This document shows positions 10,749-61,902 of a DNA stretch of 64,000 nucleotides, piece by piece. Both the position numbers and the translations under genes were made by a program. The notes under the pieces are model-generated. The model did no database searches and was not told the DNA's origin. It saw only the letters and a program-made list of their open reading frames with translations. Positions within the stretch are counted from its first letter, which is position 1, and each line of letters begins with the position of its first letter. Source of the stretch: Candidatus Omnitrophota bacterium (lineage in GTDB: Bacteria; Omnitrophota; Gorgyraeia; 2-02-FULL-51-18); NCBI GenBank assembly GCA_023247915.1, contig JAHFFN010000003.1, forward strand, positions 4,081 to 68,080, in the 5' to 3' direction.

Positions 10749-10751
10749 ATC

Positions 10752-12752: not shown

Positions 12753-12753
12753 A

Positions 12754-14504: not shown

Positions 14505-14540
14505 AGCCACGTTCGACCGAGTGTAATTTAATGACAATTT

Positions 14541-14721: not shown

Positions 14722-14753
14722 ATGAAACGCTTCTTTCCGAGGCAGAAAGAATT

Positions 14754-44834: not shown

Positions 44835-47259
44835 TTTTTATGCCATCCCGCCGCTTGTCGGCACTCTCGTATTTTTTGTTTTAGGCCTCGTCGTTTTATT
44901 CAACAAACCCCGCACTCCCGAAAAGATTATTTTTTCAGTACTTTGTCTTGAGACTTTTTATTGGCAAGTAGTTTGGCTTGCTTCATTTTTTGTACAATCC
45001 AATTCTTCTTATGTAACCTATCTCGCGAAGCTGGCTTATCTGGCGATTACACCCCTGCCTTTTACGTTTTATTGGTTAATTGTCGTTTGTTTGAAAAAAG
45101 AAAGGAGTGAAAAGGGGTATCTCGCGGGGTTCGCGGTTGTCGGTGCCGCGCTTTTGCTTCTTTTATTCTCCACGGATCTTTTTTTGGCGGGTAACCAGCA
45201 TTTTTCTTGGGGAAATTTCAGTAAGCCTGGAATTTTGTACCCAATTTTTACGGCCACAGCATTAATTTCTATGATTCGTGGACTAGTGCTACTGCGACGC
45301 TCTCTCCAAGACCCCTCTCTCGATGTTCAATCCAGAAATCAAATGAAATATTTGTTTCTGGGATTTTGCTTTTACTTTTTTTGCACGCTAGATTTTCTTC
45401 AAGTTTATGGGGCAACTTGGTATCCCATTGGCACCTTCTTTTTTATATTGGCTTCGTTGACGATCGCTTACACGATTTCTAAACACCAGCTTTTGGATAT
45501 AAAAATTGTTGTCCAGAAAACCCTGATGTACACCTTTTGGACTCTTTTTGTATCGTTAGGCTATGCGTGCGTTATTTTTTTAATTCAAAGTGTTCTATTG
45601 GGAGGGACTTTTACCCATGTAAATATGGCTTCTGAGGCGACGACGCTTAAGCGAATCCCAGATGGGTTTTATAAATGGAGCGGGCTTCTGGCGCTTCTTA
45701 TGAATGGTGGGATGGCGCTTTTTGTTTATCTCAAAAATAAGAAGAGCTTGGTTAGTGTTAAGTTTGTTATCTTGAGTTTATTTATTGGGCTGTGGGCATC
45801 AGGTTCATGGCTAGTCAATATGATTCCGGATGGGGCATTTGCGCTTTGGATTCTTCGCGGGCATTATGGGTTTGGACTCTTTGTCCCGGTTCTTTTTTTA
45901 GACTTTATTGTTACTTTTACGCGATCTTCGGAGAAATTTTGGATCCGGGTTGGATATGGGATTTCTTCTCTGCTTTTAGCCGCCGACTTTTCGTCTTATT
46001 TTATCCAAGGATTGCGAAGTGTTCCCGGCTTCAATTTCTATATCACCGAGCCAGGGGTTTTGTACCCACTATTTGTCGGCTATTTTTGTTTTTATTTCTT
46101 TTTGGCCTTTTTGAGATTGGCCGCTAGCCTTAAATGGTTCAATGAAGAGGAGAGGAAGCAAGCAAAATATGTTTTTCTCGCCTATTTCGTAGGAATGGCC
46201 GCCGGCATCGAATACTTTTGTTCGGTTTTTGGCCTGCTTCATCGTCCACCGCTGGATGATTATATTTTAATTTTTACTTTTTTGATTTTGACCTATGCGA
46301 TCGCCAAGCACGGGCTCTTGGATATTCGCGTGGTGATCAAGCGAACGCTGTATTACTCACTTTTGGCATTCCTGATTTCCACTTTTTACGTGCTTGTTGT
46401 ATTTTTGGCGCACGCCTTTTTTATGAAAGAAACCATCTCTCTGCATTATTTGGCCAGCAGCACTTTATTTATTTTGCTAATAGCCCTTTTTTTGAGACCC
46501 ATCGAAGCTATTTTGCACCGCTTATTGGACAAGAAATTTTTTAAAGGAACGATCTCCGAGATCTCCGAGCAAAAGGCGCTTTTGGAGACCGAGCTTGAGA
46601 GGCGAGAGCGACTGAAGAGCGTCGGCATCTTGGCGGCGGGGATGGCGCATGAGATCAAGAACCCTTTGACGGCGATTAACACCTTTGCTGACTATCTTCC
46701 CGAGAAATACAATGACCCTGAGTTTAGGGAGAAATTTTCGCGTATCGTGAAGCAAGAAGTGGCGCGGGTCAAAGAGATTGTCTCCGATCTTCTTTTGTTT
46801 TCAAAGCCAGCCGATCCTCATCCTCGTGAAACCGATATTTGTAAAACCCTTTCGGATATTTTAGAGCTTCTTTCAAATGATACTTTGAGCCATGGGATCC
46901 GCGTTAGTACTTCGCTGGAGGAGGCTAGAGCACATGTTGATCCTGATCAAATCAAGCAGGCTCTACTCAACATCCTCATGAACGCAATCGATGCGATGAA
47001 GGAGAAGGGGGGAGAGCTTCGGGTTGAAACGTCCACGAAAGGTAATTTTGTTACTATTTTTATCCACGACACCGGCCGTGGCATTCCCGGGGACAAAATC
47101 AAGCACATCTTCGACCCTTTCTTCACTAGCAAAGAGGGCGGTACCGGCCTTGGCCTTGCGGTCACCCATTCCATCATCGAAGGTAACCGGGGAACTATTG
47201 AGGTTAAAAGCGAGCATGGTATTGGGACAACATTCACCCTGAGGTTGCCTGCACGATGA
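44806..47259 (+). CDS. sensor histidine kinase with two tandem multi-TM (7TM-type) input modules; start uncertain (TTG 44806 or GTG 44809)
   Basis: H-box GMAHEIKNPL, N-box NILMNAIDAM, G-boxes DTGRGI and GTGLGLA. The track start at 44692 lies deep inside the OMP gene. Alignment of the N-terminus with the paralogs starts near FYAIPPLVG. Confidence 0.8.
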   Translation: MVGGSSICFNFYAIPPLVGTLVFFVLGLVVLFNKPRTPEKIIFSVLCLETFYWQVVWLASFFVQSNSSYVTYLAKLAYLAITPLPFTFYWLIVVCLKKERSEKGYLAGFAVVGAALLLLLFSTDLFLAGNQHFSWGNFSKPGILYPIFTATALISMIRGLVLLRRSLQDPSLDVQSRNQMKYLFLGFCFYFFCTLDFLQVYGATWYPIGTFFFILASLTIAYTISKHQLLDIKIVVQKTLMYTFWTLFVSLGYACVIFLIQSVLLGGTFTHVNMASEATTLKRIPDGFYKWSGLLALLMNGGMALFVYLKNKKSLVSVKFVILSLFIGLWASGSWLVNMIPDGAFALWILRGHYGFGLFVPVLFLDFIVTFTRSSEKFWIRVGYGISSLLLAADFSSYFIQGLRSVPGFNFYITEPGVLYPLFVGYFCFYFFLAFLRLAASLKWFNEEERKQAKYVFLAYFVGMAAGIEYFCSVFGLLHRPPLDDYILIFTFLILTYAIAKHGLLDIRVVIKRTLYYSLLAFLISTFYVLVVFLAHAFFMKETISLHYLASSTLFILLIALFLRPIEAILHRLLDKKFFKGTISEISEQKALLETELERRERLKSVGILAAGMAHEIKNPLTAINTFADYLPEKYNDPEFREKFSRIVKQEVARVKEIVSDLLLFSKPADPHPRETDICKTLSDILELLSNDTLSHGIRVSTSLEEARAHVDPDQIKQALLNILMNAIDAMKEKGGELRVETSTKGNFVTIFIHDTGRGIPGDKIKHIFDPFFTSKEGGTGLGLAVTHSIIEGNRGTIEVKSEHGIGTTFTLRLPAR

Positions 47260-49676
47260 ATCCTTTTGCATTTTCAGGCCTACTTATAGGAATTTCTTCA
47301 ACGGCGATGGGTGTGTGGGTATTAATGAAAAACTCATCAAGCCCCGTTAATAGACTGTGGGCTATTTTCTGTGTCTCTGTAGCTTTTTGGGGTTTTGGTG
47401 GGTGCGCATTCGGACTTGCCAAAGATGCTAGCTCAGCGCTTCTTTTTTTGAGACTTACCTATGTAGGCGTAATTTTTATACCGGTTCTTTTTTACCATTT
47501 TGTGGTCGTCTTTCTTGAGCTACATCGCCGCAAAAGTCTTGTCGTAGCTTATTTAATAAGCATCATTTTTTTAATGGCTGACGCAACTCCTCTGATGCTC
47601 GGCAATATGACCTGGATGTTTGGACAATTTTATTTTTTATGCCCACCCGGTGTGTTGTACCCATATTTCGTTTTATTTTTTGTGTTTATGACATCCGCAA
47701 GCTTGATTAATTTATGGTATTTTATGAAAAAAATTGAAAATGAACTTCGACGAACTCAGATCAAATGGTTTCTTATGGCAACGGCAATTGGATTTATAGG
47801 GGGTTCAAGCTGCTTCCTGCCTGTTTTTGGAATCAAAATTTACCCTTATGGAAATTTTACAGTTGCCTTATACCCAATAATTATGAGTTACGCCATTATC
47901 AAGCATCAATTGTTAGATATAAAAGTTGTTATCAGAAAAACAATTTTTTATTCTTTGGCGGCATTTCTAACCTCTATCATTTACGTATTCGCAATAGTTG
48001 CTACACATAAAATAATGACAGGTGAGTGGGCCTATCGGTTAGATTTTTTAAATGGTTTAAAAAATTTTCCAAGCCTTTTTACGCTAACCAGCCTCCTATG
48101 CGGACTTTTTTCTTTTGGCTTAGCTATATTTGCAGGCATCACGGGAAAATCTAAAGCTCAAAAATTATTTGCTGCCTTTAATTCAGCGGTAGCTTTATGG
48201 GGATTTGGCAATTTTTTAGCAGGAATTTCCAAGACTCCAGAGACTGCTTTACTATCTTGGCGTGTTGCATATTTTGGTGGGTTTTTTATCAGCACTTTTT
48301 TCTACCACCTAGTCTTAGATTTTTTTGAAATAAAAAATAAAAATATTTTATGGTTCGCCTATCTGCATTCGATTATTTTTTCAGCGTTGATGGCGATTCA
48401 TCCAATCTATTTTTTGAGCAAAATTCGCATGGCTTTCGGAGTGCCATACAATATTGTTACTCCGTGGATGGCCGTCGCCATTTGGATATTTTTAATTTTG
48501 GTTGGACTGAGCTATCGAGAGCTATTGCTTTATCTACAAGCTCCAAAAAATGAAAACAAGACACAAGCAAAATACTTTATTTTTGGTTTTTCGTTTGGAT
48601 TTTTTGGAGGCATGACGACTCTATTGCCTCCATTTGGTGTGGATATTATTTATCCCATTGGAAACTTGGGTGTCGCCATCTATGTCGTAATTCTTCTATA
48701 TGCAATTTTTAGACATCAAATCTTAGATATTCGTATCGTGATACAAAGAACGGCTACGTATACCGTTCTAATTCTTCTGATCTCCATAGCCTACATTTTA
48801 ATAGTATTTGCTGTGCATCGATTTATTCTAGTTGAAAAAATGGTTCATGCGAATTTATTTAGCAACGTTGTTTTGATTCTTTTAATAGCTCTATTCTTAA
48901 AACCCTTGGAAGCATTTTTACGCCGGTACGTCGATAAGAAATTTTTTAAAGGAACTATTCAGGAGATATCGGCACAAAAGGATAAGCTGGAGAGTGAATT
49001 GGAGCGGAGGGAGCGTCTTAAAAGCGTAGGAATTTTGGCTGCTGGTATGGCACATGAGATCAAAAATCCGATCACATCTATCAAGACGTTCACTGAATAT
49101 TTACCGACAAAATATGACGATCCAGAGTTTCGTGAGAAATTCATTCGGATTGTTAGTGATGAGACAGAGAGAATTTCTGGCATTGTCAAGGATCTGCTTG
49201 AATTTTCAAAGCCGTCGGAGCCCAATAAACAATCTTGTGGTCTTAATCAGATTTTATCGGATGTTACAGATCTGCTAGGTGGGGGTATCTTCAAAAAAGG
49301 CATTGAGCTTCAGATGAGCTTTGTCTCGAATCTTCCAAGAGTTTATGTTGACCCATCCCAAGCCAAGCAAGTGTTTCTAAATATCCTTATGAATGCCATG
49401 GACGCGATGACTGGTGAGCGACGCGTTTTACGGATTGAGACAGGCGTGGCTGGTAAGCATGTTTTTGTTGCCGTTGAGGACACAGGCTGTGGCATGTCTG
49501 GAGAAACCAGCAAACATCTTTTCGACCCCTTCTTCACGAACAAAGCAACCGGAACCGGACTTGGTATGGCAATCACTCATTCCCTCATTGAGAAAAACGG
49601 CGGCACGATCCATGTCAGCAGTGACATTGGCAAGGGTAGCCGTTTTGTCGTGCAATTCCCTGTATTCCAAGCTTAA
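47256..49676 (+). CDS. sensor histidine kinase with two tandem multi-TM (7TM-type) input modules
   Basis: ATGA overlap with the previous kinase gene. H-box GMAHEIKNPI, N-box NILMNAMDAM, G-boxes DTGCGM and GTGLGMA. Confidence 0.85.
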   Translation: MNPFAFSGLLIGISSTAMGVWVLMKNSSSPVNRLWAIFCVSVAFWGFGGCAFGLAKDASSALLFLRLTYVGVIFIPVLFYHFVVVFLELHRRKSLVVAYLISIIFLMADATPLMLGNMTWMFGQFYFLCPPGVLYPYFVLFFVFMTSASLINLWYFMKKIENELRRTQIKWFLMATAIGFIGGSSCFLPVFGIKIYPYGNFTVALYPIIMSYAIIKHQLLDIKVVIRKTIFYSLAAFLTSIIYVFAIVATHKIMTGEWAYRLDFLNGLKNFPSLFTLTSLLCGLFSFGLAIFAGITGKSKAQKLFAAFNSAVALWGFGNFLAGISKTPETALLSWRVAYFGGFFISTFFYHLVLDFFEIKNKNILWFAYLHSIIFSALMAIHPIYFLSKIRMAFGVPYNIVTPWMAVAIWIFLILVGLSYRELLLYLQAPKNENKTQAKYFIFGFSFGFFGGMTTLLPPFGVDIIYPIGNLGVAIYVVILLYAIFRHQILDIRIVIQRTATYTVLILLISIAYILIVFAVHRFILVEKMVHANLFSNVVLILLIALFLKPLEAFLRRYVDKKFFKGTIQEISAQKDKLESELERRERLKSVGILAAGMAHEIKNPITSIKTFTEYLPTKYDDPEFREKFIRIVSDETERISGIVKDLLEFSKPSEPNKQSCGLNQILSDVTDLLGGGIFKKGIELQMSFVSNLPRVYVDPSQAKQVFLNILMNAMDAMTGERRVLRIETGVAGKHVFVAVEDTGCGMSGETSKHLFDPFFTNKATGTGLGMAITHSLIEKNGGTIHVSSDIGKGSRFVVQFPVFQA

Positions 49677-49811
49677 AAGCCACCAACCATGCCTCAAAAG
49701 CACAACTTGTGCATTTTTAACAGCTAGTCGGTTAAAAAGCCCAATATCTTGAATAAATTTGTTATATTTAATGATTTTAATAAGTTTTTGATAAAACTTG
49801 ATAAAAAACCA

Positions 49812-49840
49812 TTGACAGAAGATAAGCCAAGATATACAAT
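49812..49840 (+). promoter_or_regulatory. putative sigma70-type promoter TTGACA-N17-TACAAT
   Basis: A near-consensus hexamer pair read directly, about 90 nt upstream of the HTH gene. Confidence 0.55.
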
Positions 49841-49931
49841 GTAATTCCTTTAGCTAGTTTAGCGTTGAGATTGGTTGCAAAAGATGGATTTAAGGAAGTT
49901 TGGGTAAGTATAGATTGGGAGAGATAAGGCC

Positions 49932-50147
49932 TTGGAAGAGCAGGATACAGTTTTCACCGTACAAGAATTAGCTGAATACCTAAGAATGAGACCATTGACA
50001 ATTTATAAACATGCCTCGGCGGGAAAGTTGCCTGGATTTAAGGTTGGATCACATTGGCGTTTCAAGCGGCAAACCATTGATGAGTGGATAAAAAGTCAGG
50101 AGAGAATTGGAACAAAACAGAAAACAGTAATAAGAGGCGAAGGATGA
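49932..50147 (+). CDS. excisionase/MerR-type HTH DNA-binding protein (71 aa, TTG start)
   Basis: FTVQELAEYLRMRPLTIYKHASAGKLPGFKVGSHWRFKRQTIDEWI matches the HTH_17 / excisionase-family pattern. GGGAGAG lies 8 nt upstream. Confidence 0.65.
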   Translation: MEEQDTVFTVQELAEYLRMRPLTIYKHASAGKLPGFKVGSHWRFKRQTIDEWIKSQERIGTKQKTVIRGEG

Positions 50148-50162
50148 GTTTTATGATCCAAA

Positions 50163-51002
50163 TTGGATATTGCTATTAAACTTTACATGAAGTCTTTATT
50201 GAATAATTTAGATAAATTATTATACGAGCGCCTGATTAAGGCTCTTATGTTTTCAAGTCGGCTTGGAAGAAAAAGTACGCTTGGATATGCTGATTCTGGA
50301 ATTAATTTTGATCATATATACCAAAACAAGGCAAAAGGGTATAACAAATTTGGAGTTATTATTGATAGAATTTTATTAAGCCTGCCGGCTTGTAAAGCAA
50401 CCAGAGAGAGGTTTATTACTATAAAAAATATCTTGGAAGACGAAGTTCGGCGCAATATTTCCAAGAACAGAAAAACACGAATAGTTGATCTGGCATCTGG
50501 ACCTGCCAGATATCTTGTTCAATTTATTCCAGAAAAATCAAATCAAATTGAAAGCCTGTGCTTAGACTTAGATAGCCGCGCCTTAAATTTTGGGAAAAAA
50601 ATTTCAGGGGATTCTAGGCCTATTCTATACAGAAAGTGGAATGCTTTAAGGCTTGGCAAGCACCTGAAAAATTTTAGTGTAAAGAGGGAATGGAAGCCGA
50701 ATGTAATTATGGCATCTGGTTTTTATGAGTATCAGCCTGATGATGTGGTTCAAGCCCATTTTTCTAAGACAAAGGAATATTTGGAACATGATGGTTTATT
50801 TTTGGGTGTTTTACAGTTTAAGAATCCAAATAGGAAATTGATAGAAAAAGTTGGTATTCAGAAAAGTGGAAAACGTTGGGTTCTTTTTTATAGATCCCCT
50901 GAGACACTCCATCATTGGATGGTAAAAGCAGGTTATTCTGACATTAGAGTTTTTTCTGATAAATGGAAGCATTATATTTTTTGTTTGGGAAGAAAACCTT
51001 AA
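50163..51002 (+). CDS. class I SAM-dependent methyltransferase-like protein (start uncertain: TTG 50163 or ATG 50187)
   Basis: The motif I-like string is RIVDLASGPARYL, followed by an acidic loop (CLDLD) and a downstream Rossmann-like pattern. Confidence 0.6.
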   Translation: MDIAIKLYMKSLLNNLDKLLYERLIKALMFSSRLGRKSTLGYADSGINFDHIYQNKAKGYNKFGVIIDRILLSLPACKATRERFITIKNILEDEVRRNISKNRKTRIVDLASGPARYLVQFIPEKSNQIESLCLDLDSRALNFGKKISGDSRPILYRKWNALRLGKHLKNFSVKREWKPNVIMASGFYEYQPDDVVQAHFSKTKEYLEHDGLFLGVLQFKNPNRKLIEKVGIQKSGKRWVLFYRSPETLHHWMVKAGYSDIRVFSDKWKHYIFCLGRKP

Positions 51003-51048
51003 GGATTTTATTTATAGTATAAAAGGGAAATGGATTTAATAATTCATT

Positions 51049-52311
51049 ATGAGCAAGAAGAGGCGTGTTGTAGTTACAGGAATGGGTATAGTAGCCCCGA
51101 ATGGCGTGGGTCGAGCAGACTTTACGAGGGCCATTTTTTCCGGAAAATCTGGGTTATCGTGGTTTGCATCACCAAAAGAAGAAAGACCGCGGATCCCTAG
51201 AGTGGTTGGGAGAGTGGAATCATTCGACCCAGCTAATTTTTTACCTTCTGCGGTTATTCGAAAGACAGATAGATTTGTTCACTTGGGCTTGGTTGCGACA
51301 AAACTAGCCCTGGAAGATGCTAAGATACAAATAAACAGTCATTATTTAGAAAATGCATCGATAATTTTAGGTTCGGGTCAGGGTGGGCTTATTTTTCACG
51401 AGCAGACGATAAAAAACTATATCGAGTCAAATGGAACAAAGAAACCTTCGGCCAGTTCTGTTCCAAGGATTACCTCAAATGCTGTAACGGCATACATTGC
51501 CATGGAATATCAAATCAAAGGTTTAAACCAAGTGATTTCAACTGCCTGCTCATCCGGAGTCCAGGCCATTGGCCAAGCATTTAGAAGTATCCAATTTGGG
51601 GTAAGTGACTTGATATTAACCGGTGGGGTAGAGGCGCCTATTGGTCCCGTTATGCTAGATATGTACGGTTCAATGATGGTACTGGGGAATCCAATTGGGG
51701 ACGATCCTTCTACTGCTTCTAGGCCATTTGACAAAACAAGAGACGGATTTGTTTTAAGTGAAGGCGCGGCCATTCTTATTTTAGAAGATCGGGAAAAAGC
51801 TTTGCAACGAGAAGCGCCTATCTATGCAGAGATAATAGGTTTTGGTTCAAATTGTGGAGCCTATCATATGGTTACACCAAATCCAAATGGTGATGACGCG
51901 GCGCTTGCAATGTTGGCGGCGATTAAAGATGCAGACATAGATTTAAAGAGTATCGATTATATCAGTGCGCATGGAACCGCCACAAAGCAAAATGATTTAG
52001 CTGAGACCAATGCGATTAAAAACCTTTTTGGCGATAAAGCAAAAACTATTCCAATTAGTGGATTGAAATCGATGATAGGGCATTCAATAGGCGCGGCCGG
52101 GGCGATTGAAGTGGTAGCTAGCTGCATAGCTATTTGTGAAGAGTTGCTTCCACCAACTATTAATTTAAATAATCCTGATTCTGGATGTGATTTAGATTAT
52201 GTAGCCAATATAGCAAGAAAGAAAACCATACGAACTGTTCTAAAAAATTCTTTTGGGTTTGGTTCAAATAACGCAACTTTAATTTTAAGGGATGCGCGAT
52301 ATGAAAAATAA
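51049..52311 (+). CDS. beta-ketoacyl-ACP synthase (KAS I/II type, Cys-His-His)
   Basis: VVVTGMGIVAPNG, active-site Cys in STACSSG, and His residues in SAHGTAT and IGHSIGAAG. Confidence 0.9.
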   Translation: MSKKRRVVVTGMGIVAPNGVGRADFTRAIFSGKSGLSWFASPKEERPRIPRVVGRVESFDPANFLPSAVIRKTDRFVHLGLVATKLALEDAKIQINSHYLENASIILGSGQGGLIFHEQTIKNYIESNGTKKPSASSVPRITSNAVTAYIAMEYQIKGLNQVISTACSSGVQAIGQAFRSIQFGVSDLILTGGVEAPIGPVMLDMYGSMMVLGNPIGDDPSTASRPFDKTRDGFVLSEGAAILILEDREKALQREAPIYAEIIGFGSNCGAYHMVTPNPNGDDAALAMLAAIKDADIDLKSIDYISAHGTATKQNDLAETNAIKNLFGDKAKTIPISGLKSMIGHSIGAAGAIEVVASCIAICEELLPPTINLNNPDSGCDLDYVANIARKKTIRTVLKNSFGFGSNNATLILRDARYEK

Positions 52312-52591
52312 TCAGCAGATTAGTCGTGATGAAGTCTTCGATGGTGTTCTGATTGTCTTGTCTAGCATACTGGATGGCAAGGAAGCTAAAATTGTTCCAA
52401 AGAATAACATAACCTGGGATACCGATATATATGATGATTTGGGAATTGATTCTTTAGAAAGTTTAGATTTTCTTTCCGGGCTAGAAGAGAGGTTTAAGGT
52501 GAATCCGGATCAATACGAAGCCAATGATAAGAGAAAAGTATCAGAAATTGTGGACTATATCTTAAAACTAGCTAATGAAAAACCTGCATAG
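52301..52591 (+). CDS. acyl carrier protein
   Basis: The phosphopantetheine site is LGIDSLESLDF. The ATG at 52301 has AAGGGA 8 nt upstream and overlaps the KAS end by 11 nt. Confidence 0.8.
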   Translation: MKNNQQISRDEVFDGVLIVLSSILDGKEAKIVPKNNITWDTDIYDDLGIDSLESLDFLSGLEERFKVNPDQYEANDKRKVSEIVDYILKLANEKPA

Positions 52592-52612
52592 ACTTCTCGG
52601 GGGACATAGAAT

Positions 52613-53416
52613 TTGTTAAATAACATGAATAATAAATTCAGGGCAATACAGGTTGAAGAGCTGGAGGGGGGTGCTTTGTGGCGCCTTCAAATTAATAATC
52701 CACCAGTCAACTTGTTAACTATTAAAATTATTGATGAGATTGCTGGGTGCATAGATTTGTTCGGTCAAAGCAGGCAGGCTAGAGTACTGGTATTTACGAG
52801 TGGGCTAGAAAAATTTTTTATAGCAGGAGCTGACCCAGAAGAAATAAACTCTATCTCTTCTCCGGAAGATGGGTTCGTAACAGCTAAAAGAGGCCAAGAT
52901 CTTTGTAGCAAGATAGCGGCATTAGAGAAACCGGTAATTGCTGCTATTGACGGCGCCTGCATTGGCGGGGGGAATGAAATCGCAATAGCGTGCCATATGC
53001 GCATTGCTTCCGACAAAGCTGTTTTTCAACAACCAGAAATACATTTAGGTATTATTCCAGCTTTTGGGGGAACTCAGAGGCTGGGTCGGTTAATTGGCGA
53101 ATCTAGGGCAAAAAAAATGATTTTGACGGGTGAAAAAATTAGTGCAAAGGATGCGCTACTATTTGGTTTAATTGATCAATTAGTCAGCGAGAGAAGCGCT
53201 TTGGATGAGTCTCTTAGAATTGCCAGAGTAATGTTATCAAAGAGTCCCACTGCAATCAAATTGGCTTTTAAAGCTTTGAATAAGGGGGCAGCACTTTCAT
53301 TGAGCGATGGATTGGCTATTGAATTAGAGTGTTTTAGAGAAGTATGCAAAAACAGTAACATGAAAGAGGCTTTAAATGCTTTCAAGGAAAGGCGCAGGCC
53401 AATTTTTGAACCATGA
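52613..53416 (+). CDS. enoyl-CoA hydratase/isomerase (crotonase) family protein
   Basis: FIAGADPEEI, the oxyanion/Glu context ACIGGGNEIAIACH, and the second Glu in QPEIHLGIIPAFGGTQRL. Confidence 0.85.
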   Translation: MLNNMNNKFRAIQVEELEGGALWRLQINNPPVNLLTIKIIDEIAGCIDLFGQSRQARVLVFTSGLEKFFIAGADPEEINSISSPEDGFVTAKRGQDLCSKIAALEKPVIAAIDGACIGGGNEIAIACHMRIASDKAVFQQPEIHLGIIPAFGGTQRLGRLIGESRAKKMILTGEKISAKDALLFGLIDQLVSERSALDESLRIARVMLSKSPTAIKLAFKALNKGAALSLSDGLAIELECFREVCKNSNMKEALNAFKERRRPIFEP

Positions 53417-54108
53417 TAAATCGCACTAGAAAAATACAGGGTCTTGTATGCTTTGGAGATAGTATCTTCGCTGGGACAGGGGCTTCCGATCGTCAAATTG
53501 GAAGTGCAAAATTAATAAAAAATATTTTGACAATTCCTGTGTCCTTGCAAGGACGAAACAGAGATACAAGCGAGATGGCTATTCGCAGACTTGAAAAAGA
53601 CATCCTTTCTCTCGGGAAAGAGTACACACAAGTGATCGTGTTGCTAGGTAATAATGATTGCTGGTTAGATACTAATGGTGAGCCACGCATAACCTTGGAA
53701 ACTTTTGAAGCAAATATGGTGCGTATCATTAATTTAATTCAAGCAAACGGCAGAGAAGCTATAATTTGCAATCTTCAACCAATTCACGACAAAAATTTTT
53801 TAATTACATTTCCAGAGTATCAAGATTTTTTTAAAAAGAGTAAATTCAAACCTACAGAATTGCAAGAGGTTTATAGTAATAAAATAGAAAACATTTGCAA
53901 AAAATTTAATTTAGTTATGATAGATATAAGAGAAGAGTTTCTTGATTCAGCAGGAACTTTAATGGCGGATGACGGAATCCATCCCAATGACTTAGGACAT
54001 AAAAAAATTGCCAAAAAGATAATATCTACCTTGGGCAAATTGGATATTTCGCTGTTGGGAAGTGGTTTAAAAATTGAGTCCTCTGATTGGATTGGTAGGC
54101 ACGCATGA
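53413..54108 (+). CDS. SGNH/GDSL hydrolase (TesA-like esterase/thioesterase fold)
   Basis: Block I is VCFGDSIFAG, block III is LLGNNDC, and block V is DGIHPNDLGH. There is a 4-nt overlap with the crotonase gene. Confidence 0.8.
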   Translation: MINRTRKIQGLVCFGDSIFAGTGASDRQIGSAKLIKNILTIPVSLQGRNRDTSEMAIRRLEKDILSLGKEYTQVIVLLGNNDCWLDTNGEPRITLETFEANMVRIINLIQANGREAIICNLQPIHDKNFLITFPEYQDFFKKSKFKPTELQEVYSNKIENICKKFNLVMIDIREEFLDSAGTLMADDGIHPNDLGHKKIAKKIISTLGKLDISLLGSGLKIESSDWIGRHA

Positions 54109-56234
54109 CTTTATACATCGTTACAACAGGCTTAACGGCTGTGTTATTTTTTTTAGTAGGCTTTTTTGTGTATCTTCAAAATCCAAAATCAGAGCTCTAC
54201 TTAAGGTGTTTTGTTTTTAGTAATTCAGTCGCTCTGTGGGCGCTTGGGTATTTTATTACATTAATACAGGTGTTTAATTATGATTACACGTTACTCATTA
54301 GTAGGGCTTCTCACGCATGCGGAGCGATTATACCGATCGCATATTATCATTTTGTTATGGCGTTATTAAAAAAGCCAGGAAATCCAAAATTTTTAAAATT
54401 AGGATATTTAATTTCCATAGCAATGTCTGTTATGTCATTCTCGCCTTGGGTAGTCAAAGCGTTATTGCCAAAAATGGATATTCAGCTTTATCCCGAATGG
54501 GGTGTTTTATACCCCCTTTATACAAGTCTATTCGTTGTCTATCCCGGCTATGCGCATTATCGAATGCTTCCTGAGATTAAAAGGCTCCATGGGACAGAAA
54601 GGACGCGTTTAATATATTTCTTTGTTGCTTTGGCGCTAGCCTTTGCAGGCGGCATATCGCTGTTTTTTTTAATATTCAATGTTCCGTTCCCCCCTTATTT
54701 TAGTGTTTTTATAATTTTGTATCCTCCAATGATGGCGTACACAATACTTGTGCATAAATTCATGGATATAGAAGTTATTGTAAGGCGTACAGCAGTTTTC
54801 GCAGGCCTTTTTGCTTTCGTTTACGGCGTATTTACAACTGTAACAATTTTAGGCCAAGAATTTTTCATGAATTTTCTAGGCTGGAACCAATGGACAGCAA
54901 TGATACCCACTGTATTCATTATTACTTTCTCTCTTCGCCCCCTAGAAATATTTTTGACAAATACCACTGAGAAATTTTTATTTCAGAAAAAATATGACTA
55001 TCGCGAACTTCTTAGAACTTTTACTAATGAGACTCTCACCGTTTTAGATTTGCAGAAGCTGATGGATCAAACCGTAGCGGGATTGATCAAGATCATGAAG
55101 CTCGAAGCTGCTGCAGTCTTGCTATTTGATAAGGATGAAAAAAAATATAAATTTATGGCGGGATCTGGGATAAAGGATAAGCAGATCGTTTTTGATGACA
55201 GCGACACGGTTATTGCTTATCTAAAGAAAACCCATCAGCCAATCGCGAAGGATAAGGCAGCGGATAAGATTGAGGGAAATAGCCTTCTTAAAGATAATTT
55301 TGCTAAGTTGAATGCGAGACTTTGCTTGCCGATCACACTCCACGAAGAACTGATAGGGGTTCTGTGTCTAGGCATGAAAAAATCTGGAGAGGACTATACC
55401 CAGGAAGATATAGACATCTTAACCACGCTTGCTCGCACAGAAGCGATCGCTATTTCTAACGCCCAGCTTTTCGATGAGCTTTCAAAGACTCAGGCAGAAG
55501 CTGCTCAGCGAGAAAAGATGGCGGTGATTGGGACGCTGGCAGCAGGAATTAATCACGAGATTTGCAATCCTCTTGGGATTGTCCGTGGGCAATGCGAAAT
55601 GTTTCTTCTGAACTTTAGAGATGGGTTCTACAAATCAAAATCTCAAGATGAGGTTTTGGCGATCGCATCGGATGTGATGGGAAAGGTAATCAAAGAAACA
55701 GATCGGGCAACGGCAATCACCAAAAAGCTTTCAAGTTTTGCCAAGCCATCCAAACGCTCGGAGTTTGAAGAGGTGCATGTAGATAAAGAAGTCGATGAAG
55801 TCTTGGGGTTAGTTGGGCATGATTTGCAACTTAATAATATTGCTGTTAGTAAAAATTTTACAGAAAATTTCCCTGCCATATTGGCTGATAGGAAACAAGT
55901 TCAGGAGGTTCTGTTTAATATTATTCGAAATGCTGCTCAAGCTATGGATAAAAAGGCGGGCACGATACAAGTTTCGGGCGCTGTTCAAACTGAAATGGCC
56001 GTTATTCGTATCGCTGACAACGGTTCGGGGATCCCTAAGGATAAGCTCGAACAGGTTTTTCATCCTTTCTACACGACCAAAGAACCTGGGAAGGGCACGG
56101 GTCTCGGACTTTTTATTGTTAAGCAGGTGGTTGAGCGCAATAAGGGCTCTATCCAGGTTGAAAGCGAGCAGGGCGTAGGGACAACATTTACTCTTAAGTT
56201 TCCCTTAACTGAAAAAATGGCAGCGGTGGCCTAA
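54105..56234 (+). CDS. sensor histidine kinase: one multi-TM (7TM-type) module, then GAF, HisKA and HATPase domains
   Basis: ATGA overlap with the SGNH gene. There is a GAF-like region (LMDQTVAGLIKIMKLEAAAVLLFD...LCLPITLHEELIGVLCLG). H-box AAGINHEICNPL; G-boxes DNGSGI and GTGLGLF. Confidence 0.85.
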   Translation: MTLYIVTTGLTAVLFFLVGFFVYLQNPKSELYLRCFVFSNSVALWALGYFITLIQVFNYDYTLLISRASHACGAIIPIAYYHFVMALLKKPGNPKFLKLGYLISIAMSVMSFSPWVVKALLPKMDIQLYPEWGVLYPLYTSLFVVYPGYAHYRMLPEIKRLHGTERTRLIYFFVALALAFAGGISLFFLIFNVPFPPYFSVFIILYPPMMAYTILVHKFMDIEVIVRRTAVFAGLFAFVYGVFTTVTILGQEFFMNFLGWNQWTAMIPTVFIITFSLRPLEIFLTNTTEKFLFQKKYDYRELLRTFTNETLTVLDLQKLMDQTVAGLIKIMKLEAAAVLLFDKDEKKYKFMAGSGIKDKQIVFDDSDTVIAYLKKTHQPIAKDKAADKIEGNSLLKDNFAKLNARLCLPITLHEELIGVLCLGMKKSGEDYTQEDIDILTTLARTEAIAISNAQLFDELSKTQAEAAQREKMAVIGTLAAGINHEICNPLGIVRGQCEMFLLNFRDGFYKSKSQDEVLAIASDVMGKVIKETDRATAITKKLSSFAKPSKRSEFEEVHVDKEVDEVLGLVGHDLQLNNIAVSKNFTENFPAILADRKQVQEVLFNIIRNAAQAMDKKAGTIQVSGAVQTEMAVIRIADNGSGIPKDKLEQVFHPFYTTKEPGKGTGLGLFIVKQVVERNKGSIQVESEQGVGTTFTLKFPLTEKMAAVA

Positions 56235-56240
56235 CGCTTT

Positions 56241-56630
56241 ATGCCAAAACTTTTGAGTATTGACGATGAGGTGGAATTTACTAATTTGATGCAAAACTAC
56301 TTTGGGCCGAGAGGGTATGAGGTATTTGTCGCTAATCAGGGAGATTCGGGTCTGGTTATTGCTAAACGCGAAAAGCCGGATGTTTGTTTAATTGATCTTA
56401 AAATGCCCGGGCTTCACGGGGATGATGTTTTGAGAGAGATTCTGTTGGATCAACCGGACGCCAAATGTATTATGATTACAGCATCTGAAGGCGAAGGAAA
56501 AACCCGAGCGAAGCTTATGAAAATGGGAGCCTTCACGACATTTGATAAACCGGTAACATCGCTCAAAGATTTGGAAGAAAAGGTGAGGCAAGCCTTGGCT
56601 AGTCGTATGAACGGAGAAAAAAATGGGTAA
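56241..56630 (+). CDS. single-domain response regulator (receiver only)
   Basis: The acceptor Asp is in DVCLIDLKMPG, with Thr in MITASEG and Lys in FDKPV. Confidence 0.85.
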   Translation: MPKLLSIDDEVEFTNLMQNYFGPRGYEVFVANQGDSGLVIAKREKPDVCLIDLKMPGLHGDDVLREILLDQPDAKCIMITASEGEGKTRAKLMKMGAFTTFDKPVTSLKDLEEKVRQALASRMNGEKNG

Positions 56631-57009
56631 AGCTCCTAAGCTTCTTGTGGTGGATAATGAGCTAGACATTTGTAATTTTGTGAAATCTTTTTTTGAAATG
56701 CGTGGATTTCAAGTCACGACGGCACTGAACGGTGATGATGCGATGGCGAAGCTTGCATTAGTGCAGCCGGATATAGTGATCCTGGATGTGGTGATGCGTC
56801 GCGAGACTGAAGGGATTGAGTATCTTCCAAAAATCAAGCAGGCGATGCCGAATGTCCGTGTGATCATGGTTACTGGTGTTGACGACAAAGATACCGTTGA
56901 GAAAGCCAAGCAGTTGGGCGCGGACGACTATATTACGAAGCCTCTGGTGTTGGAGTATCTGGAGGGAACGGTGCTTGGGAAGATAAAGAGCTTGGAAAAT
57001 GTTAGATGA
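56623..57009 (+). CDS. single-domain response regulator (receiver only)
   Basis: The acceptor Asp is in DIVILDVVM, with Thr in MVTGVDD and Lys in ITKPL. There is an 8-nt overlap with the preceding gene. Confidence 0.85.
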   Translation: MGKAPKLLVVDNELDICNFVKSFFEMRGFQVTTALNGDDAMAKLALVQPDIVILDVVMRRETEGIEYLPKIKQAMPNVRVIMVTGVDDKDTVEKAKQLGADDYITKPLVLEYLEGTVLGKIKSLENVR

Positions 57010-57030
57010 AGATCCTTCGCTTCGCTCAGG

Positions 57031-58260
57031 ATGACTGTGTATAGCCGCTTAGACTACCAGGAAGCCCTTTTAAACGCCTCCAAAGGCATGATCCGGGTTA
57101 AAGACCCGATCACCTTGCTTAAAATTATCACACGTTTCATTGATCGCCAGATCGGTGTTACGCATGTAGGAATTCTCCTTTTTGATCGTCTTAAAGATTC
57201 CTATGTTCTAATCGACAGTAAAGGCGAGGGCGGCGTTAAGATCCCCGTTGGCTATATCCGCGTCACTAAAAATAACCCGCTTGTCACTTTCTTTGTCGCT
57301 TCTAATAATAGCGCATTTGATCGGAAAGAAGCACTGGTATACAGCGAGCTTAAGCACCTTCAGAACTTTGAAATATTTGTGAATAAAAAAGAAGGCCGAG
57401 CGATCCACTACGAAGATATTCAAAAGCAGATGGATTATTTTCGTGCCTCGGTTTGCGTGCCAAGTTTTTATAAGCGCGAGCTGATAGGTGTTCTGATCCT
57501 TGGTGAAAAGCTATCAGGAGAAAAATATTTCGAAGAAGAAATTAATCTTTTTGTGACATTGGCCAATGACGTGGCCATGGCCGTCAAAAATGCGGAACTT
57601 ATTAAAGATCTAAAAATCGCTTATGACAAAGAGCACAATCTTTTTATCCAGACCTCGGTAGCTCTTGCGACGGCTATCGACGCTAGAGATCGTTATACGC
57701 ATGGCCATTCAGAGCGCGTATCGCATTACAGCCTTGTCATTGCCAAAGAGTTGATTGATGAGGGAAAAATTGAATACGATCGTGAATTTATGGAGACAGT
57801 ACAGTTATCCGCTTTGCTTCATGACATTGGAAAGATAGGTATTCGGGACAATATTTTAAACAAACCAGATAAGCTCACCACGGAAGAGTTTGAAATCATG
57901 AAAACCCATGTGGCGATCGGCGGAAGCATCTTAAAGCCGGTGGATGGGCTGACACATCTGGCAGACGGTATCTTGTATCATCATGAGAGATTTGATGGGA
58001 AGGGCTACCCGCATGGCTTGAAAGGCAAGGACATCCCAATTATCGGACGTATCGTGAACGCAGCCGACTCATACGATACGATCGTAACGGCTCGTGCTTA
58101 TAAGGCTTCTTCCGCGTCAGAGGATGCGTTTAAGGAGCTTATCCGGTGCAAGGGCAGCCAGTTTGACCCTGAAATCGTCGATGCATTCTATAATGCCTAT
58201 AAAGCCGGAAGACTAACTAAGAGGGAATACACTAGCTACGATTTTTCAAAATTACACTAA
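57031..58260 (+). CDS. GAF domain / HD-GYP domain protein (predicted c-di-GMP phosphodiesterase)
   Basis: HGHSERV, LLHDIGKIG and HHERFDGKGYPHGL (the HD-GYP signature). The N-terminal region is GAF-like. Confidence 0.85.
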   Translation: MTVYSRLDYQEALLNASKGMIRVKDPITLLKIITRFIDRQIGVTHVGILLFDRLKDSYVLIDSKGEGGVKIPVGYIRVTKNNPLVTFFVASNNSAFDRKEALVYSELKHLQNFEIFVNKKEGRAIHYEDIQKQMDYFRASVCVPSFYKRELIGVLILGEKLSGEKYFEEEINLFVTLANDVAMAVKNAELIKDLKIAYDKEHNLFIQTSVALATAIDARDRYTHGHSERVSHYSLVIAKELIDEGKIEYDREFMETVQLSALLHDIGKIGIRDNILNKPDKLTTEEFEIMKTHVAIGGSILKPVDGLTHLADGILYHHERFDGKGYPHGLKGKDIPIIGRIVNAADSYDTIVTARAYKASSASEDAFKELIRCKGSQFDPEIVDAFYNAYKAGRLTKREYTSYDFSKLH

Positions 58261-59869
58261 TTTCAGTTCCTGCTCCCAGTTTACTTTTTACTTCCATTTT
58301 CCCGCCATGCTTGCTGATAATGCTGTGAACGATTGATAAGCCAAGGCCAGTTCCTTCTTCCTTTGTAGTGAAGAAGGGATCAAAGAGGTGGGAGATGTTT
58401 TCTTTTGGAATGCCCACGCCGGTATCCGAAATAATAATCATCGAATCTGAAATACTCACAGTTAAGGTGCCGCCGTCCGGCATGGCTTGTATGCTATTTA
58501 GGAAGAGATTCAAAAAAGCTTGGCGGAGTTGATTTTTATCAACCAGCAGAGTTATGTCTCTTGAATATTTTTTAACAAGCTCGATTTTATTTTTTAGTAA
58601 ATTATTACCAAGTAAGCTCAGCGTATCATCCAAAATTGAAGCCATTGAACAAGGTTTAAGCTCAAGCTCCTGAGGTTTGGAAAATTCTAGAAGTTGCTTC
58701 ACAATATTATTAACCCGATCGACTTCATCCACGACAATTTTCTTGAATTTCTCTCTAAATCCAGGATCATCATATTTTTCAGGGAGGTATTCCGCAAAGG
58801 TTTTGATAGAGGTGAGTGGGTTTTTAATCTCATGCGCCATCCCAGCCGCCAGCGTTGCCACGGTTTTCATTTGTTCGGTTTTCTGTACTTCTTGAATCAG
58901 ACGATCATTTTCTTTTTGCAATTCCTCAGGAGTCTTTTTGAAAATAAGCAGGTCAACGAAACTTTGAATTTTTCTTTCCAGGGGCTTAAAGAGAAGCGTT
59001 ATGACCGTTAATATTAATAAAATAACAGGAGCAGAATGAGCTTTCGCTAATCCCCCAACAAAAGTGGCGGTCAAATAGACGATAGTAAAGTATAACGTGG
59101 CAATGATTGAAACTAATATCGAATAGGCCAAACTTTTTCGAATGACGATGGAAATTCCCATTACGCCATGCCGAAATATTCCGTACATAGTAAAAGTGAC
59201 AAAGAGCACTGCAAATATACAGCCCACCGGAAAAAAATCAATTCCCCAGTTATGAAGAAAATCAGAGCTTCCGCAGGTGACAAATATCATTGCTAAAAAT
59301 AAATATTTTATCTCGTGGTATCTGTTAGTTTTTCCATGCTCATTTCGGACGACAGTTAGCGCAAGATGCAGTAAATGAATTGCATAAAACGCTGTACCTA
59401 GCACAAACGTAGTGTGGATAGCGTGAAACACGCCGCCTTTTGGATAGAATCCCCAAGAATAATTGTATGTGCCAGATATAAAGCTATTACTAGTCCACAC
59501 AAGAACTAAAAAGACAAAAGTGAATGAATAAGCGATTATTAGGTCACGTTTCAGGGGTTTTGACTTTAGCTCATTCTTAACAAAGGATGTCGCAAAATGC
59601 AGGGCAAGCGTTGGCATAAATACAACGCCGGTATAAACCCATCTGCCCAAGACAAGAGATGTATGATCAGAGAATAATTTGGACGATAAAAGAGATATCG
59701 AGAAAAGCCAGATGCAAATTGCTATACAAAAATAAAAGTAAAGTTGATTTGTGAGGTTTTTGTGATTTTTAGTTAAGACGAATATGCCTTGCGAAAGACA
59801 CACAACTCCACAAAAGAACGTTAAGACCGAATAGAATGGTAGATGTGAAGGCGTAATTGAGAGCGTCAT
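58232..59869 (-). CDS. sensor histidine kinase with one multi-TM (7TM-type) input module
   Basis: H-box GMAHEIKNPLTSIKTFAEYLPEKYDD, N-box NLFLNSIQAM, G-boxes DTGVGI and GTGLGLS. Confidence 0.85.
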   Translation of the reverse strand: MTLSITPSHLPFYSVLTFFCGVVCLSQGIFVLTKNHKNLTNQLYFYFCIAICIWLFSISLLSSKLFSDHTSLVLGRWVYTGVVFMPTLALHFATSFVKNELKSKPLKRDLIIAYSFTFVFLVLVWTSNSFISGTYNYSWGFYPKGGVFHAIHTTFVLGTAFYAIHLLHLALTVVRNEHGKTNRYHEIKYLFLAMIFVTCGSSDFLHNWGIDFFPVGCIFAVLFVTFTMYGIFRHGVMGISIVIRKSLAYSILVSIIATLYFTIVYLTATFVGGLAKAHSAPVILLILTVITLLFKPLERKIQSFVDLLIFKKTPEELQKENDRLIQEVQKTEQMKTVATLAAGMAHEIKNPLTSIKTFAEYLPEKYDDPGFREKFKKIVVDEVDRVNNIVKQLLEFSKPQELELKPCSMASILDDTLSLLGNNLLKNKIELVKKYSRDITLLVDKNQLRQAFLNLFLNSIQAMPDGGTLTVSISDSMIIISDTGVGIPKENISHLFDPFFTTKEEGTGLGLSIVHSIISKHGGKMEVKSKLGAGTEISVILKNRS

Positions 59870-61464: not shown

Positions 61465-61515
61465 TTATATCGTAAGCCGATTAGTCCAATGTCAGACGAA
61501 TGGCATAGTAATTCA

Positions 61516-61902
61516 TTACTTCTTGGCGGCTTCTTGGAGTGTCTGAGAGATGGAGCGGAGGACGTGTTTGGAGTCGAAAGGTTTCGGGATGTAATCGGCA
61601 GCACCGTTACGGAGGGCTTCTTGGGCGGTTTCGACGCTTTGGTAGCCGGTGACGATAATGACGGGGAGCTTGGGCTTCAGCGCTTTGACTTGTTTTAAAA
61701 TCTCCATTCCATGGAGTTTGGGCATCTTGATGTCGAGTAGCATTAAGTCCGGTGTGAAGGACTTTAAGAGCTCTAAAGCATCGAGGCCGTTTTTAGAAAA
61801 TTTGAGGGAGTAGTTGTCCTCGAGAATTAATTTGAAAGATTCGCGAATACCTTCTTCGTCGTCGCAAACAAGAATGGTAGGTTTGTGCGTTTCGGACGCC
61901 AT
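61516..61902 (-). CDS. single-domain response regulator (receiver only)
   Basis: The acceptor Asp is in DLMLLDIKMP, with Thr in IIVTGYQS and Lys in YIPKPF. AGGAGG lies upstream on the minus strand. Confidence 0.85.
   Translation of the reverse strand: MASETHKPTILVCDDEEGIRESFKLILEDNYSLKFSKNGLDALELLKSFTPDLMLLDIKMPKLHGMEILKQVKALKPKLPVIIVTGYQSVETAQEALRNGAADYIPKPFDSKHVLRSISQTLQEAAKK

Follow-up and report, generated by a model that had tools for sequence, protein, structure and literature searches.

In the diffusible signal factor (DSF)/Rpf systems of Xanthomonas and Burkholderia, the crotonase RpfF works together with the kinase RpfC and the HD-GYP protein RpfG. In the BioC/BioH pimeloyl-acyl carrier protein (ACP) methyl ester pathway, a methyltransferase and an esterase bracket chain extension on the ACP, and the housekeeping machinery is borrowed. 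In the Phc system (phcBSRQ) of Ralstonia solanacearum, PhcB makes methyl 3-hydroxymyristate or methyl 3-hydroxypalmitate, which is sensed by the kinase PhcS (PMC8578825, PMC6989110). Here, we analysed five enzyme genes in a 64,000-nucleotide stretch of DNA from a Candidatus Omnitrophota bacterium (contig JAHFFN010000003.1; the whole stretch is hereafter termed the window), which constitute the enzyme half of a ten-gene operon. With a probability of roughly one half, we read this operon as a synthase-receptor module for a small, methylated, fatty-acyl-derived signal, similar to the Phc and DSF systems and with an output in cyclic di-GMP (c-di-GMP) turnover. The phylum Omnitrophota is widespread, has no cultured representatives and consists mostly of very small bacteria; our literature search found no paper on these cassettes or on signalling or quorum sensing in the phylum.

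Five enzyme genes within a ten-gene operon

A sequence-only reading of this DNA had recognised genes for a methyltransferase, a condensing enzyme, an ACP, a crotonase and a TesA-like hydrolase on the plus strand at 50163-54108, and the open reading frame (ORF) list, together with Pfam and NCBIfam, bore out all five families and their positions. Five co-directional ORFs fill that segment. The functional unit (49812-58260) is nevertheless much longer than the extent originally given; the operon runs from an HTH_17 gene through a GAF-HD-GYP gene and includes a sensor kinase with a seven-transmembrane (7TM) region:

49932..50147, plus strand: small DNA-binding protein of the HTH_17 (excisionase/MerR-like) family (PF12728, 58.6 bits)
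50187..51002, plus strand: class I S-adenosylmethionine (SAM)-dependent methyltransferase (MT; PF12147 Methyltransf_20, 88.7 bits; SAM motif DLASGPARY)
51049..52311, plus strand: FabF-family beta-ketoacyl-ACP synthase (KAS; N and C ketoacyl-synt domains; Cys167-His308-His345 intact)
52292..52591, plus strand: dedicated ACP, divergent from AcpP (PF00550 PP-binding, 34 bits; Ser54 in DSL)
52613..53416, plus strand: crotonase-fold enoyl-thioester hydratase/dehydratase (ECH_1, 197 bits; Glu122 and Glu142)
53413..54108, plus strand: SGNH/GDSL hydrolase, proposed acyl-thioester or ester hydrolase (Lipase_GDSL_2; no signal peptide)
54105..56234, plus strand: sensor histidine kinase with a 7TM region (residues 1-300), GAF and HisKA/HATPase domains by domain matches; proposed cognate receptor
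56241..56630, plus strand: receiver-only response regulator (PF00072 only)
56623..57009, plus strand: receiver-only response regulator (PF00072 only)
57031..58260, plus strand: GAF and HD-GYP protein (PF13487 HD_5 and GAF; HDIGK and HHERFDGKGYP motifs), putative c-di-GMP phosphodiesterase output

The MT frame opens at a TTG codon (50163), and alignment of homologues points to the ATG at 50187 as the likely start. Overlaps join KAS to ACP (20 nt), crotonase to hydrolase (4 nt), hydrolase to kinase (4 nt) and the two regulators to each other (8 nt), and the remaining intergenic gaps measure 6-46 nt. An HTH_17 gene also heads many related cassettes at their 5′ end, and its product is likely the transcriptional regulator of the operon. 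Rfam and tRNA scans gave no match inside the operon.

To place the catalytic residues, the proteins were aligned to E. coli reference proteins. Cys167, His308 and His345 of the KAS correspond to Cys164, His304 and His341 of FabF, with Lys340, Thr310 and the gatekeeper Phe404 retained, confirming the elongating-type Cys-His-His triad that had been proposed; this triad was intact in all cassette KAS proteins examined. The predicted DSL serine of the ACP likewise proved to be the equivalent of AcpP Ser37 (Ser54, kept in 18 loci), and both expected catalytic glutamates of the crotonase were found in their contexts (Glu122 in GGGNE and Glu142 in QPE, both kept in 18 loci). In the hydrolase, Ser17, Gly47, Asn81, Asp187 and His190 match TesA blocks I, II, III and V and are kept in 16 loci, so that block II is present in addition to the three blocks recognised earlier. 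All 16-18 related cassettes conserve the active-site residues, so the five-gene set is not a chance occurrence. The description "TesA-like" holds for the catalytic motifs but not for overall similarity, which amounts to only 24% identity (E 4e-5 in an 11-protein database only); against the PDB, a TesA homologue matched at E 0.97 and other GDSL lipases at about E 1e-6, and NCBIfam returned no thioesterase match for the hydrolase. As the hydrolase has no signal peptide, it is predicted to be cytoplasmic, unlike TesA.

Recurrence of the cassette across Omnitrophota

We surveyed 24 genome and 64 metagenome loci, annotated by BLAST with proteins of the window and of sister loci. Near homologues of the window MT came almost exclusively from metagenome-assembled genomes (MAGs) of Omnitrophota, and four cassette types were defined among the loci whose MT is at least 35% identical to it. 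In type A, MT is followed by KAS, ACP, crotonase and SGNH hydrolase, in some loci with a receiver-only regulator directly after MT, and KAS-MT-ACP-crotonase-hydrolase is an alternative gene order; this type is found in the window and in at least 15 other non-redundant loci (L005, L050, L051, L053, L054, L055, L057, L062, L064/L094, L065, L066, L067, L068, L072, L078/L095 and L106). Type B combines MT with a FabK-like reductase (top NCBIfam match FabK, 181-193 bits, under the cut-off) and an SGNH hydrolase, preceded in some loci by KAS and ACP, and type C contains only MT and SGNH hydrolase. Type D pairs MT with a divergent KAS of 29% identity that keeps its triad, and a kinase-regulator-regulator-HD-GYP block like that of the window comes next; the window block was also found in L012-L014, L041 and L046. 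The MT is the sole enzyme common to all MT-containing variants.

Of the 27 non-redundant loci that extend at least 4.5 kb downstream, 26 have a 7TM kinase directly after the cassette on the same strand, and the same arrangement was observed in five more contexts outside these 27. By comparison, in about 20 loci whose YnbC-type MTs are distant (24-31% identical), the MT was never followed by a 7TM kinase, and its neighbours were PlsC-like or CdsA-like lipid genes. Flanking genes beyond cassette and kinase differ from locus to locus. The recurrent rule is a lipid-tailoring cassette followed by a 7TM kinase and, after it, receiver-only regulators, in many cases with an HTH_17 gene in front. Lipid-related enzymes other than MT cassettes occupy a comparable position: in L001, L016, L076, L105 and L108, 7TM kinases are directly preceded by a fusion of START and acyl-ACP-reductase-like domains, in some cases accompanied by a PlsC-like acyltransferase. 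Further links to c-di-GMP are HD-GYP proteins (window and type D), a GGDEF protein (L003) and PilZ fusions. The sequence-only reading had favoured a small signalling product over a bulk lipid, and this view is strongly reinforced by the kinase linkage, the regulators, the HD-GYP, GGDEF and PilZ domains, and the domain fusions detailed below.

The absence of acyltransferase, ketoreductase, dehydratase and enoyl reductase genes, noted earlier for the window, was confirmed for the operon and is reproducible, since none occurs in the at least 16 non-redundant five-gene loci. Moreover, searches with E. coli FabH, FabD, FabG, FabZ and FabI (E<1e-6) detected no homologue in 94 related loci. The cassette would accordingly depend on housekeeping fatty-acid synthesis, and the sole hint of such traffic is an AcpP-like ACP (60-68% identical to E. 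coli AcpP) encoded directly upstream of MT in four loci, besides the divergent ACP and with no other fab genes nearby:

L053, 334-579: AcpP-like ACP
L057, 321-566: AcpP-like ACP
L067, 5881-6129: AcpP-like ACP
L090, 2084-2326: AcpP-like ACP

Furthermore, the five proteins co-evolve, with Mantel r of 0.56-0.91 between pairwise distances in 13 complete loci (all p<=0.0005). There is good support for a dedicated cassette that is incomplete by design and has a functional tie to two-component and c-di-GMP genes.

Family placement gave a graded picture. The window KAS scored 453.2 bits to the fabF model TIGR03150, under the equivalog cut-off of 493.75, and passed the broader PRK07314 subfamily (447 versus a cut-off of 387); its identity is 40% to E. 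coli FabF and 32% to FabB, and it scored 331 bits to B. subtilis FabF and 253 bits to the actinorhodin ketosynthase (KS). In a neighbour-joining tree, computed without bootstrap values, the 18 type A KAS proteins and their 60 best database matches formed one 78-leaf clade that leaves out E. coli FabF, generic matches of about 50% identity, type B-linked KAS proteins and the long-branched type D proteins. Genomic context was covered for the 18 loci and ten of the 60 database proteins: all 18 loci-derived members and nine database proteins (P0047, P0051, P0067, P0076, P0077, P0079, P0080, P0088 and P0100) reside in five-gene cassettes, and the tenth, P0109 (L105), belongs to a KS-rich cassette without MT that is also beside 7TM kinases. 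Every context-checked member hence lies in a cassette adjoining a 7TM kinase. The L105 set (7001-12795) reads KS/KS/ACP/ApeI-like dehydratase/KS/KS between 7TM kinases, in a MAG labelled Uhrbacteria, and it is its first KS that falls in the window KAS clade. The window ACP is 32% identical to AcpP over 56 residues and lies under every NCBIfam ACP cut-off. For the crotonase, the best PDB matches were 3-hydroxypropionyl-CoA dehydratase and short-chain enoyl-CoA hydratases (171-137 bits; top match 5zai, 171 bits), DspI scored 106 bits, and no RpfF entry appeared among the 60 best PDB matches. The closest database relatives outside the cassette clade are generic enoyl-CoA hydratases (41-48% identity), among which the cassette crotonases form their own subclade. 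The presence of a separate SGNH hydrolase argues against the need for a dual dehydratase/thioesterase crotonase.

The sequence-only reading had named an outcome that would speak against it, namely KAS and crotonase falling into ordinary FabF and crotonase families and the same genes elsewhere lying beside standard fab genes. The first half was broadly what we found, in that the KAS is within the FabF family and the crotonase groups with canonical hydratases rather than RpfF; the second half was clearly not, as no homologue of FabD, FabG, FabH, FabZ or FabI was found in the 94 loci and both enzymes belong to cassette-linked clades. That fabF-acpP and accessory genes for housekeeping fatty-acid synthesis simply happen to lie beside signalling genes is accordingly scarcely credible. 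Such an explanation could draw on the FabF-like character of the KAS, which satisfies the PRK07314 subfamily cut-off, and on the AcpP-like ACP adjoining the cassette in L053, L057, L067 and L090; yet the KAS is under the fabF equivalog cut-off and in a separate clade, the ACP is far under every AcpP cut-off, the 94 related loci yielded no fabD, fabG, fabH, fabZ or fabI, and the linkage to MT and kinase is essentially invariant. The context survey contradicts this explanation, and we rejected it. We also discarded a cassette for polyketide synthase (PKS) beta-branching through HMG-CoA synthase, because there is no gene for that synthase, the KAS keeps its Cys, and only a single crotonase is present.

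A different possibility is a secondary-metabolite cluster of the type II PKS, aryl-polyene or 'ladderane' type that makes an antibiotic, pigment or protective lipid, with the two-component system as its pathway-specific regulator. The L105 set, which contains a related member of the KAS clade, would fit this scheme, as would the beta-ketoacyl-synthase clusters and 'ladderane' calls that antiSMASH-based surveys report in Omnitrophota (PMC9902471). Some of these calls may themselves be cassette loci of the present kind. Against a secondary metabolite, the window operon has a single KAS and no chain-length factor, cyclase, reductase or transporter, its regulators lack a DNA-binding output, and the last gene of the module encodes an HD-GYP protein; furthermore, the poly-KAS variant is likewise flanked by 7TM kinases, and the kinase is kept by cassettes as small as MT and hydrolase. 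We consider this origin quite improbable. Another incomplete KAS set, which is outside the cassette clade, was seen in an unrelated genome, where an aminotransferase, a FabF-like KAS and an ACP (L096 4776-7960, P0142) are encoded beside MacB/RND-type efflux genes.

Sensor kinase, methyltransferase and the proposed signal

To examine how the sensor relates to the enzymes, the window kinase was split into three parts, each of which was compared with 35 cassette-adjacent kinases. For the 7TM region, 14 of the 15 best matches were kinases behind type A cassettes (41-57% identity), and similarity differed between type A and non-A kinases (Mann-Whitney p=3e-4). The catalytic cores of these 7TM-matching type A kinases were only 26-40% identical to the window core, which instead was nearest to those of type D (MT-KAS) kinases (59-65%), whose 7TM regions were 32-38% identical. 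Among type A kinases, the 7TM region is the best-conserved part, with a mean identity of 46% versus 33-34% for the GAF domain and kinase core, which is the reverse of the usual pattern. Since the 7TM region tracks the cassette type and the core does not, the sensor appears to travel with the enzyme set and the transmitter with the downstream output. This association stands between cassette types only and not at a fine scale.

Regulatory domains also reach into the enzymes themselves. A receiver-only regulator gene lies between MT and KAS in many type A loci, and a PilZ domain is fused to the MT in several relatives. A separate observation is P0146 (L097 1215-2819), a FabF-like KAS with a fused receiver domain, encoded between two ACP genes; this condensing enzyme is apparently under direct phosphorylation control. 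Enzymes regulated in this manner are what would be expected if the operon served two-component-controlled remodelling of envelope or membrane lipids, in which the kinase senses the state of the membrane, as DesK does, and the product stays in the envelope instead of diffusing. This is the main rival explanation, although we regard it as rather unlikely. It gains from the receiver-KAS and PilZ-MT fusions and the in-cassette receiver gene, all of which mark the enzymes as regulated outputs, from the wholly membrane-embedded sensor, and from the wider PF12147 family, which occurs in glycerolipid operons alongside CdsA-like genes, PlsC-like genes or those for CDP-alcohol transferases (for example, E. 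coli ynbABCD and Gastranaerophilales loci) and includes a PlsC-MT fusion. Conversely, an acyltransferase or head-group enzyme that could install a product is missing from the window operon, the conserved partner is an acyl-releasing hydrolase, and the output is c-di-GMP turnover and not a lipid-gene regulon; seven different 7TM modules in one genome (see below) are hard to fit with a single bulk membrane property, and the sensor type tracks the enzyme set.

The MT, as the shared enzyme, is central to the chemistry. It covers profile positions 37-303 of 309 in PF12147, well above the cut-off of 21 bits, and belongs to a small divergent subfamily, given that YnbC-type proteins score 347-393 bits; against the C-terminal domain of E. 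coli YnbC, it showed 24% identity (E 1e-18). Among 1.84 billion representatives of 50%-identity clusters, the near subfamily numbers about 27 at E<1e-48 (>180 bits) and 62 at E<=1e-30. NCBIfam returned no match for the MT, and no paper was found on PF12147/Methyltransf_20, nor a relevant one on YnbC as a methyltransferase. An AlphaFold2 model of the MT (pLDDT 89) matched first the fold of 3ocj, a structural-genomics protein of unknown function, and then those of small-molecule methyltransferases. The family has no invariant His, which speaks weakly for methylation of a carboxyl group and against base-catalysed C-methylation or phenolic O-methylation.

Fusions involving the MT give a further indication of its partners. 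Near relatives of the window MT include an MT-FabK-like reductase fusion (L016 9989-11890), for which the next annotated same-strand gene is a 7TM kinase about 1.6 kb downstream, a PilZ-MT-alpha/beta hydrolase fusion (L108 6001-8193, P0293) and a fusion of MT to a class I/II aminotransferase of the BioF/CqsA family (L107 6001-8118, P0296), both directly followed by a 7TM kinase, as well as MT-alpha/beta hydrolase fusions without PilZ. The wider family adds hydrolase-MT fusions (E. coli YnbC, L017 and L018) and PlsC-MT fusions. The window MT itself stands alone, without the Hydrolase_4 fusion of some near relatives, and its neighbours are kinases. Pairing of hydrolase and MT is a family trait, as in YnbC and its relatives, and because the hydrolase partner recurs in two unrelated folds (SGNH and alpha/beta) and in both fusion orders, consecutive steps are favoured, in which the acyl group is released and then methylated.

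The opposite order would apply to a protecting-group scheme like that of BioC/BioH, wherein MT acts first and masks the carboxyl of malonyl-ACP, KAS accepts the masked primer, crotonase or FabK-like enzymes process the chain, and the hydrolase finally removes the methyl group to leave an omega-carboxy acyl product, possibly destined for an enzyme like 8-amino-7-oxononanoate synthase (AONS). The conserved core of MT and esterase-type hydrolase with fatty-acid-type enzymes between them, the minimal MT-KAS cassettes suited to disguising a primer, the alpha/beta (BioH) fold of the hydrolase in some relatives, and the MT-aminotransferase fusion, which is beside KAS and 7TM kinases, all speak for this scheme. 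It is nonetheless improbable in our judgement: BLAST found no similarity between the window MT and E. coli BioC, the Pfam tables of the surveyed loci contain no bio genes (no dedicated search for bioB, bioD or bioA was made), the fusions of MT and hydrolase in both orders suggest consecutive steps and not the first and last of a pathway, and MT-KAS cassettes lack a hydrolase altogether. Adaptation in the manner of CheR/CheB, with the MT methylating carboxylates of the kinase or another protein, the hydrolase demethylating them and the receivers acting like CheY, is very unlikely and was rejected. The combination of MT, esterase-type hydrolase, membrane kinase and CheY-like single-domain regulators as the conserved core could suit it; KAS, ACP, crotonase and FabK-like enzymes, however, co-evolve with or are fused to the MT, which only makes sense for a small-molecule acyl pathway, and the MT family is lipid-linked and unrelated to CheR by Pfam.

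We infer the identity of the product, its perception by the kinase and the order of steps from these arrangements, and our proposal of a signal-producing module takes the following form. The dedicated FabF-like KAS would extend an acyl chain from general fatty-acid synthesis onto the dedicated ACP, and a borrowed FabG-type reductase would yield the 3-hydroxyacyl-ACP, whose 3-hydroxy and 2-enoyl forms the crotonase would interconvert. The SGNH hydrolase would then free the acid, and the MT would turn it into a membrane-permeant methyl ester or another methylated derivative; methylation as the last step is favoured over methylation first, as in BioC-like masking. The adjacent kinase would sense the lipid-like product through its 7TM domain and signal via the receiver-only regulators to c-di-GMP turnover by the HD-GYP protein. 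In relatives, control of the enzymes by receiver or PilZ domains would close a feedback loop.

Several observations weigh against this proposal. The case rests on genomic context in metagenome-assembled genomes, and L034 has no kinase after its cassette. Within type A, 7TM and enzyme distances are weakly correlated (Mantel r 0.19-0.37), and because the sensor-coding 5′ end of the kinase gene adjoins the cassette, intragenic recombination alone could yield the association of sensor and cassette. The receiver-KAS and PilZ-MT fusions make the enzymes outputs of signalling, which is not proof that their product is an input to the kinase. The crotonase is nearer to CoA-dependent short-chain hydratases than to the ACP-dependent RpfF. 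As for the methylation, the fold matches of the MT mix C- and O-methyltransferases, so its chemistry is not assignable from fold; the single window sequence matched no solved structure at E<=1, and the family profile matched only 1wzn, a weak generic hit (E=0.0013, 21 bits).

A broader and more tentative idea is that Omnitrophota possess a chemical language of interchangeable acyl-ACP-tailoring cassettes, each making its own lipid signal and accompanied by a matching 7TM sensor, with the kinase core and c-di-GMP output shuffled independently. The cassettes would be of the MT-KAS/ACP/crotonase/hydrolase, MT-FabK-like, MT-hydrolase, MT-AONS-like, START-acyl-ACP-reductase-like and multi-KS types. 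In such a language, the window genome, which would make one signal and carries seven sensor modules, would also listen to the signals of others.

Surroundings of the operon and comparison with known systems

The operon is bounded and flanked by the following features:

49700..49712, plus strand: terminator-like hairpin and T-run, closing the upstream kinase gene (which ends at 49676) and marking the 5′ boundary of the operon
49788-49806, plus strand: direct repeat of TTGATAAAA, two copies at 10-bp spacing, abutting the -35 element of the promoter-like site
49812-49840, plus strand: best sigma-70-like promoter match of the region (TTGACA-17-TACAAT, 11/12; a consensus match only)
44692-47259 and 47256-49676, plus strand: two HisKA_7TM kinases, each with two tandem 7TM modules, upstream of the operon
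58232-59869 and 59866-61464, minus strand: two HisKA_7TM kinases, convergent with the operon
61516-61902, minus strand: receiver-only regulator, convergent with the operon

The TTGATAAAA repeat may be an operator or a chance occurrence in AT-rich DNA. Together with the operon kinase, the four flanking HisKA_7TM kinases, two of them with tandem modules, form an island (44692-61902) that holds seven sensor modules. These are mutually divergent (22-38% identity), and the GC content of the island is 38-44%, compared with 47-52% in the window's first 32 kb. When the six other modules were compared with the cassette types, one kinase was faintly nearer to MT-KAS sensors (33-36% identity), an observation we did not use.

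Just upstream of the island lie two OmpW/OMP beta-barrel paralogues, 51% identical (43478-44083 and 44154-44834, plus strand); we considered the pair as an export or uptake route for hydrophobic molecules and dropped the idea, as related loci do not keep these genes. Elsewhere, the window is ordinary chromosome, with genes for SecY, GAPDH, PGK, ThiG and a TonB-dependent receptor. A cobalamin riboswitch (14530-14731, plus strand, 103.9 bits) directly precedes the receptor gene (14754-16898), which presumably serves B12-regulated uptake. A 2839-residue RHS-repeat protein (32939-41458, plus strand) is followed by two ORFs without a Pfam match (260 and 255 residues; 41443-43454), possibly a locus of the toxin/immunity type (32939-43454). 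An ORF without a Pfam match (62123-64000, plus strand), at least 625 residues long, continues past the end of the window.

If our reading of the operon is correct, it would represent the first candidate cell-to-cell or self-signalling system for Omnitrophota, assign a function to the uncharacterised PF12147 methyltransferase family, E. coli YnbC included, and add a third enzyme logic for fatty-acid-derived signals to those of DSF (crotonase alone) and Phc (methyltransferase alone). Enzyme set, sensor domain and c-di-GMP output would be separate, swappable parts, an unusually legible design. The signature of a cassette plus a 7TM kinase is simple enough for genome-mining rules; present tools probably label such loci fatty-acid or 'ladderane'-like clusters. 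The signal hypothesis is directly testable, as about 4 kb of DNA holds the enzyme set.

By analogy, the operon would be a variant of a known theme, a fatty-acid-derived signal with a two-component receptor, built from a different enzyme set and kinase type. In its parts, the operon resembles housekeeping metabolism: the KAS triad and gatekeeper, the ACP serine and all SGNH blocks are shared with FabF, AcpP and TesA of E. coli, from which the window proteins differ in overall sequence (40%, 32% and 24% identity, respectively), in the separate clade of the KAS and in the missing signal peptide of the hydrolase. With the YnbC/PF12147 family, the operon shares the MT and its recurrent pairing with an acyl hydrolase; here, however, the hydrolase is of the SGNH type and encoded by a separate gene, and the neighbours are kinases and regulators, not CdsA-like or PlsC-like enzymes. 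Similarly, BioC/BioH offers an MT and an esterase-type hydrolase around a fatty-acid-type extension, with an incomplete enzyme set, whereas the window MT is not similar to BioC, its hydrolase is SGNH and not BioH-like, and the locus is linked to a sensor kinase.

In logic, the operon resembles the two described signalling systems. As in DSF/Rpf, a two-Glu crotonase would act on a 3-hydroxyacyl or enoyl thioester from fatty-acid synthesis, and a membrane sensor kinase and an HD-GYP c-di-GMP phosphodiesterase belong to the same cluster; in contrast to it, the crotonase here is nearest to canonical short-chain hydratases, the kinase is not an RpfC-type hybrid, release would fall to a separate SGNH hydrolase and not to the crotonase, and an MT and a dedicated KAS and ACP are present in addition. 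As in Phc, where the literature describes PhcB by its SAM-dependent methyltransferase domain, a SAM-dependent MT, a membrane sensor kinase and response regulators are encoded together in a single operon, and by analogy the proposed signal would derive from an intermediate of fatty-acid synthesis, with the MT as the key signal-forming enzyme. Unlike in Phc, the MT here is accompanied by a dedicated set of KAS, ACP, crotonase and hydrolase, the kinase is of the HisKA_7TM-GAF type, and the output consists of receiver-only regulators and an HD-GYP protein in place of the LysR regulator PhcA.

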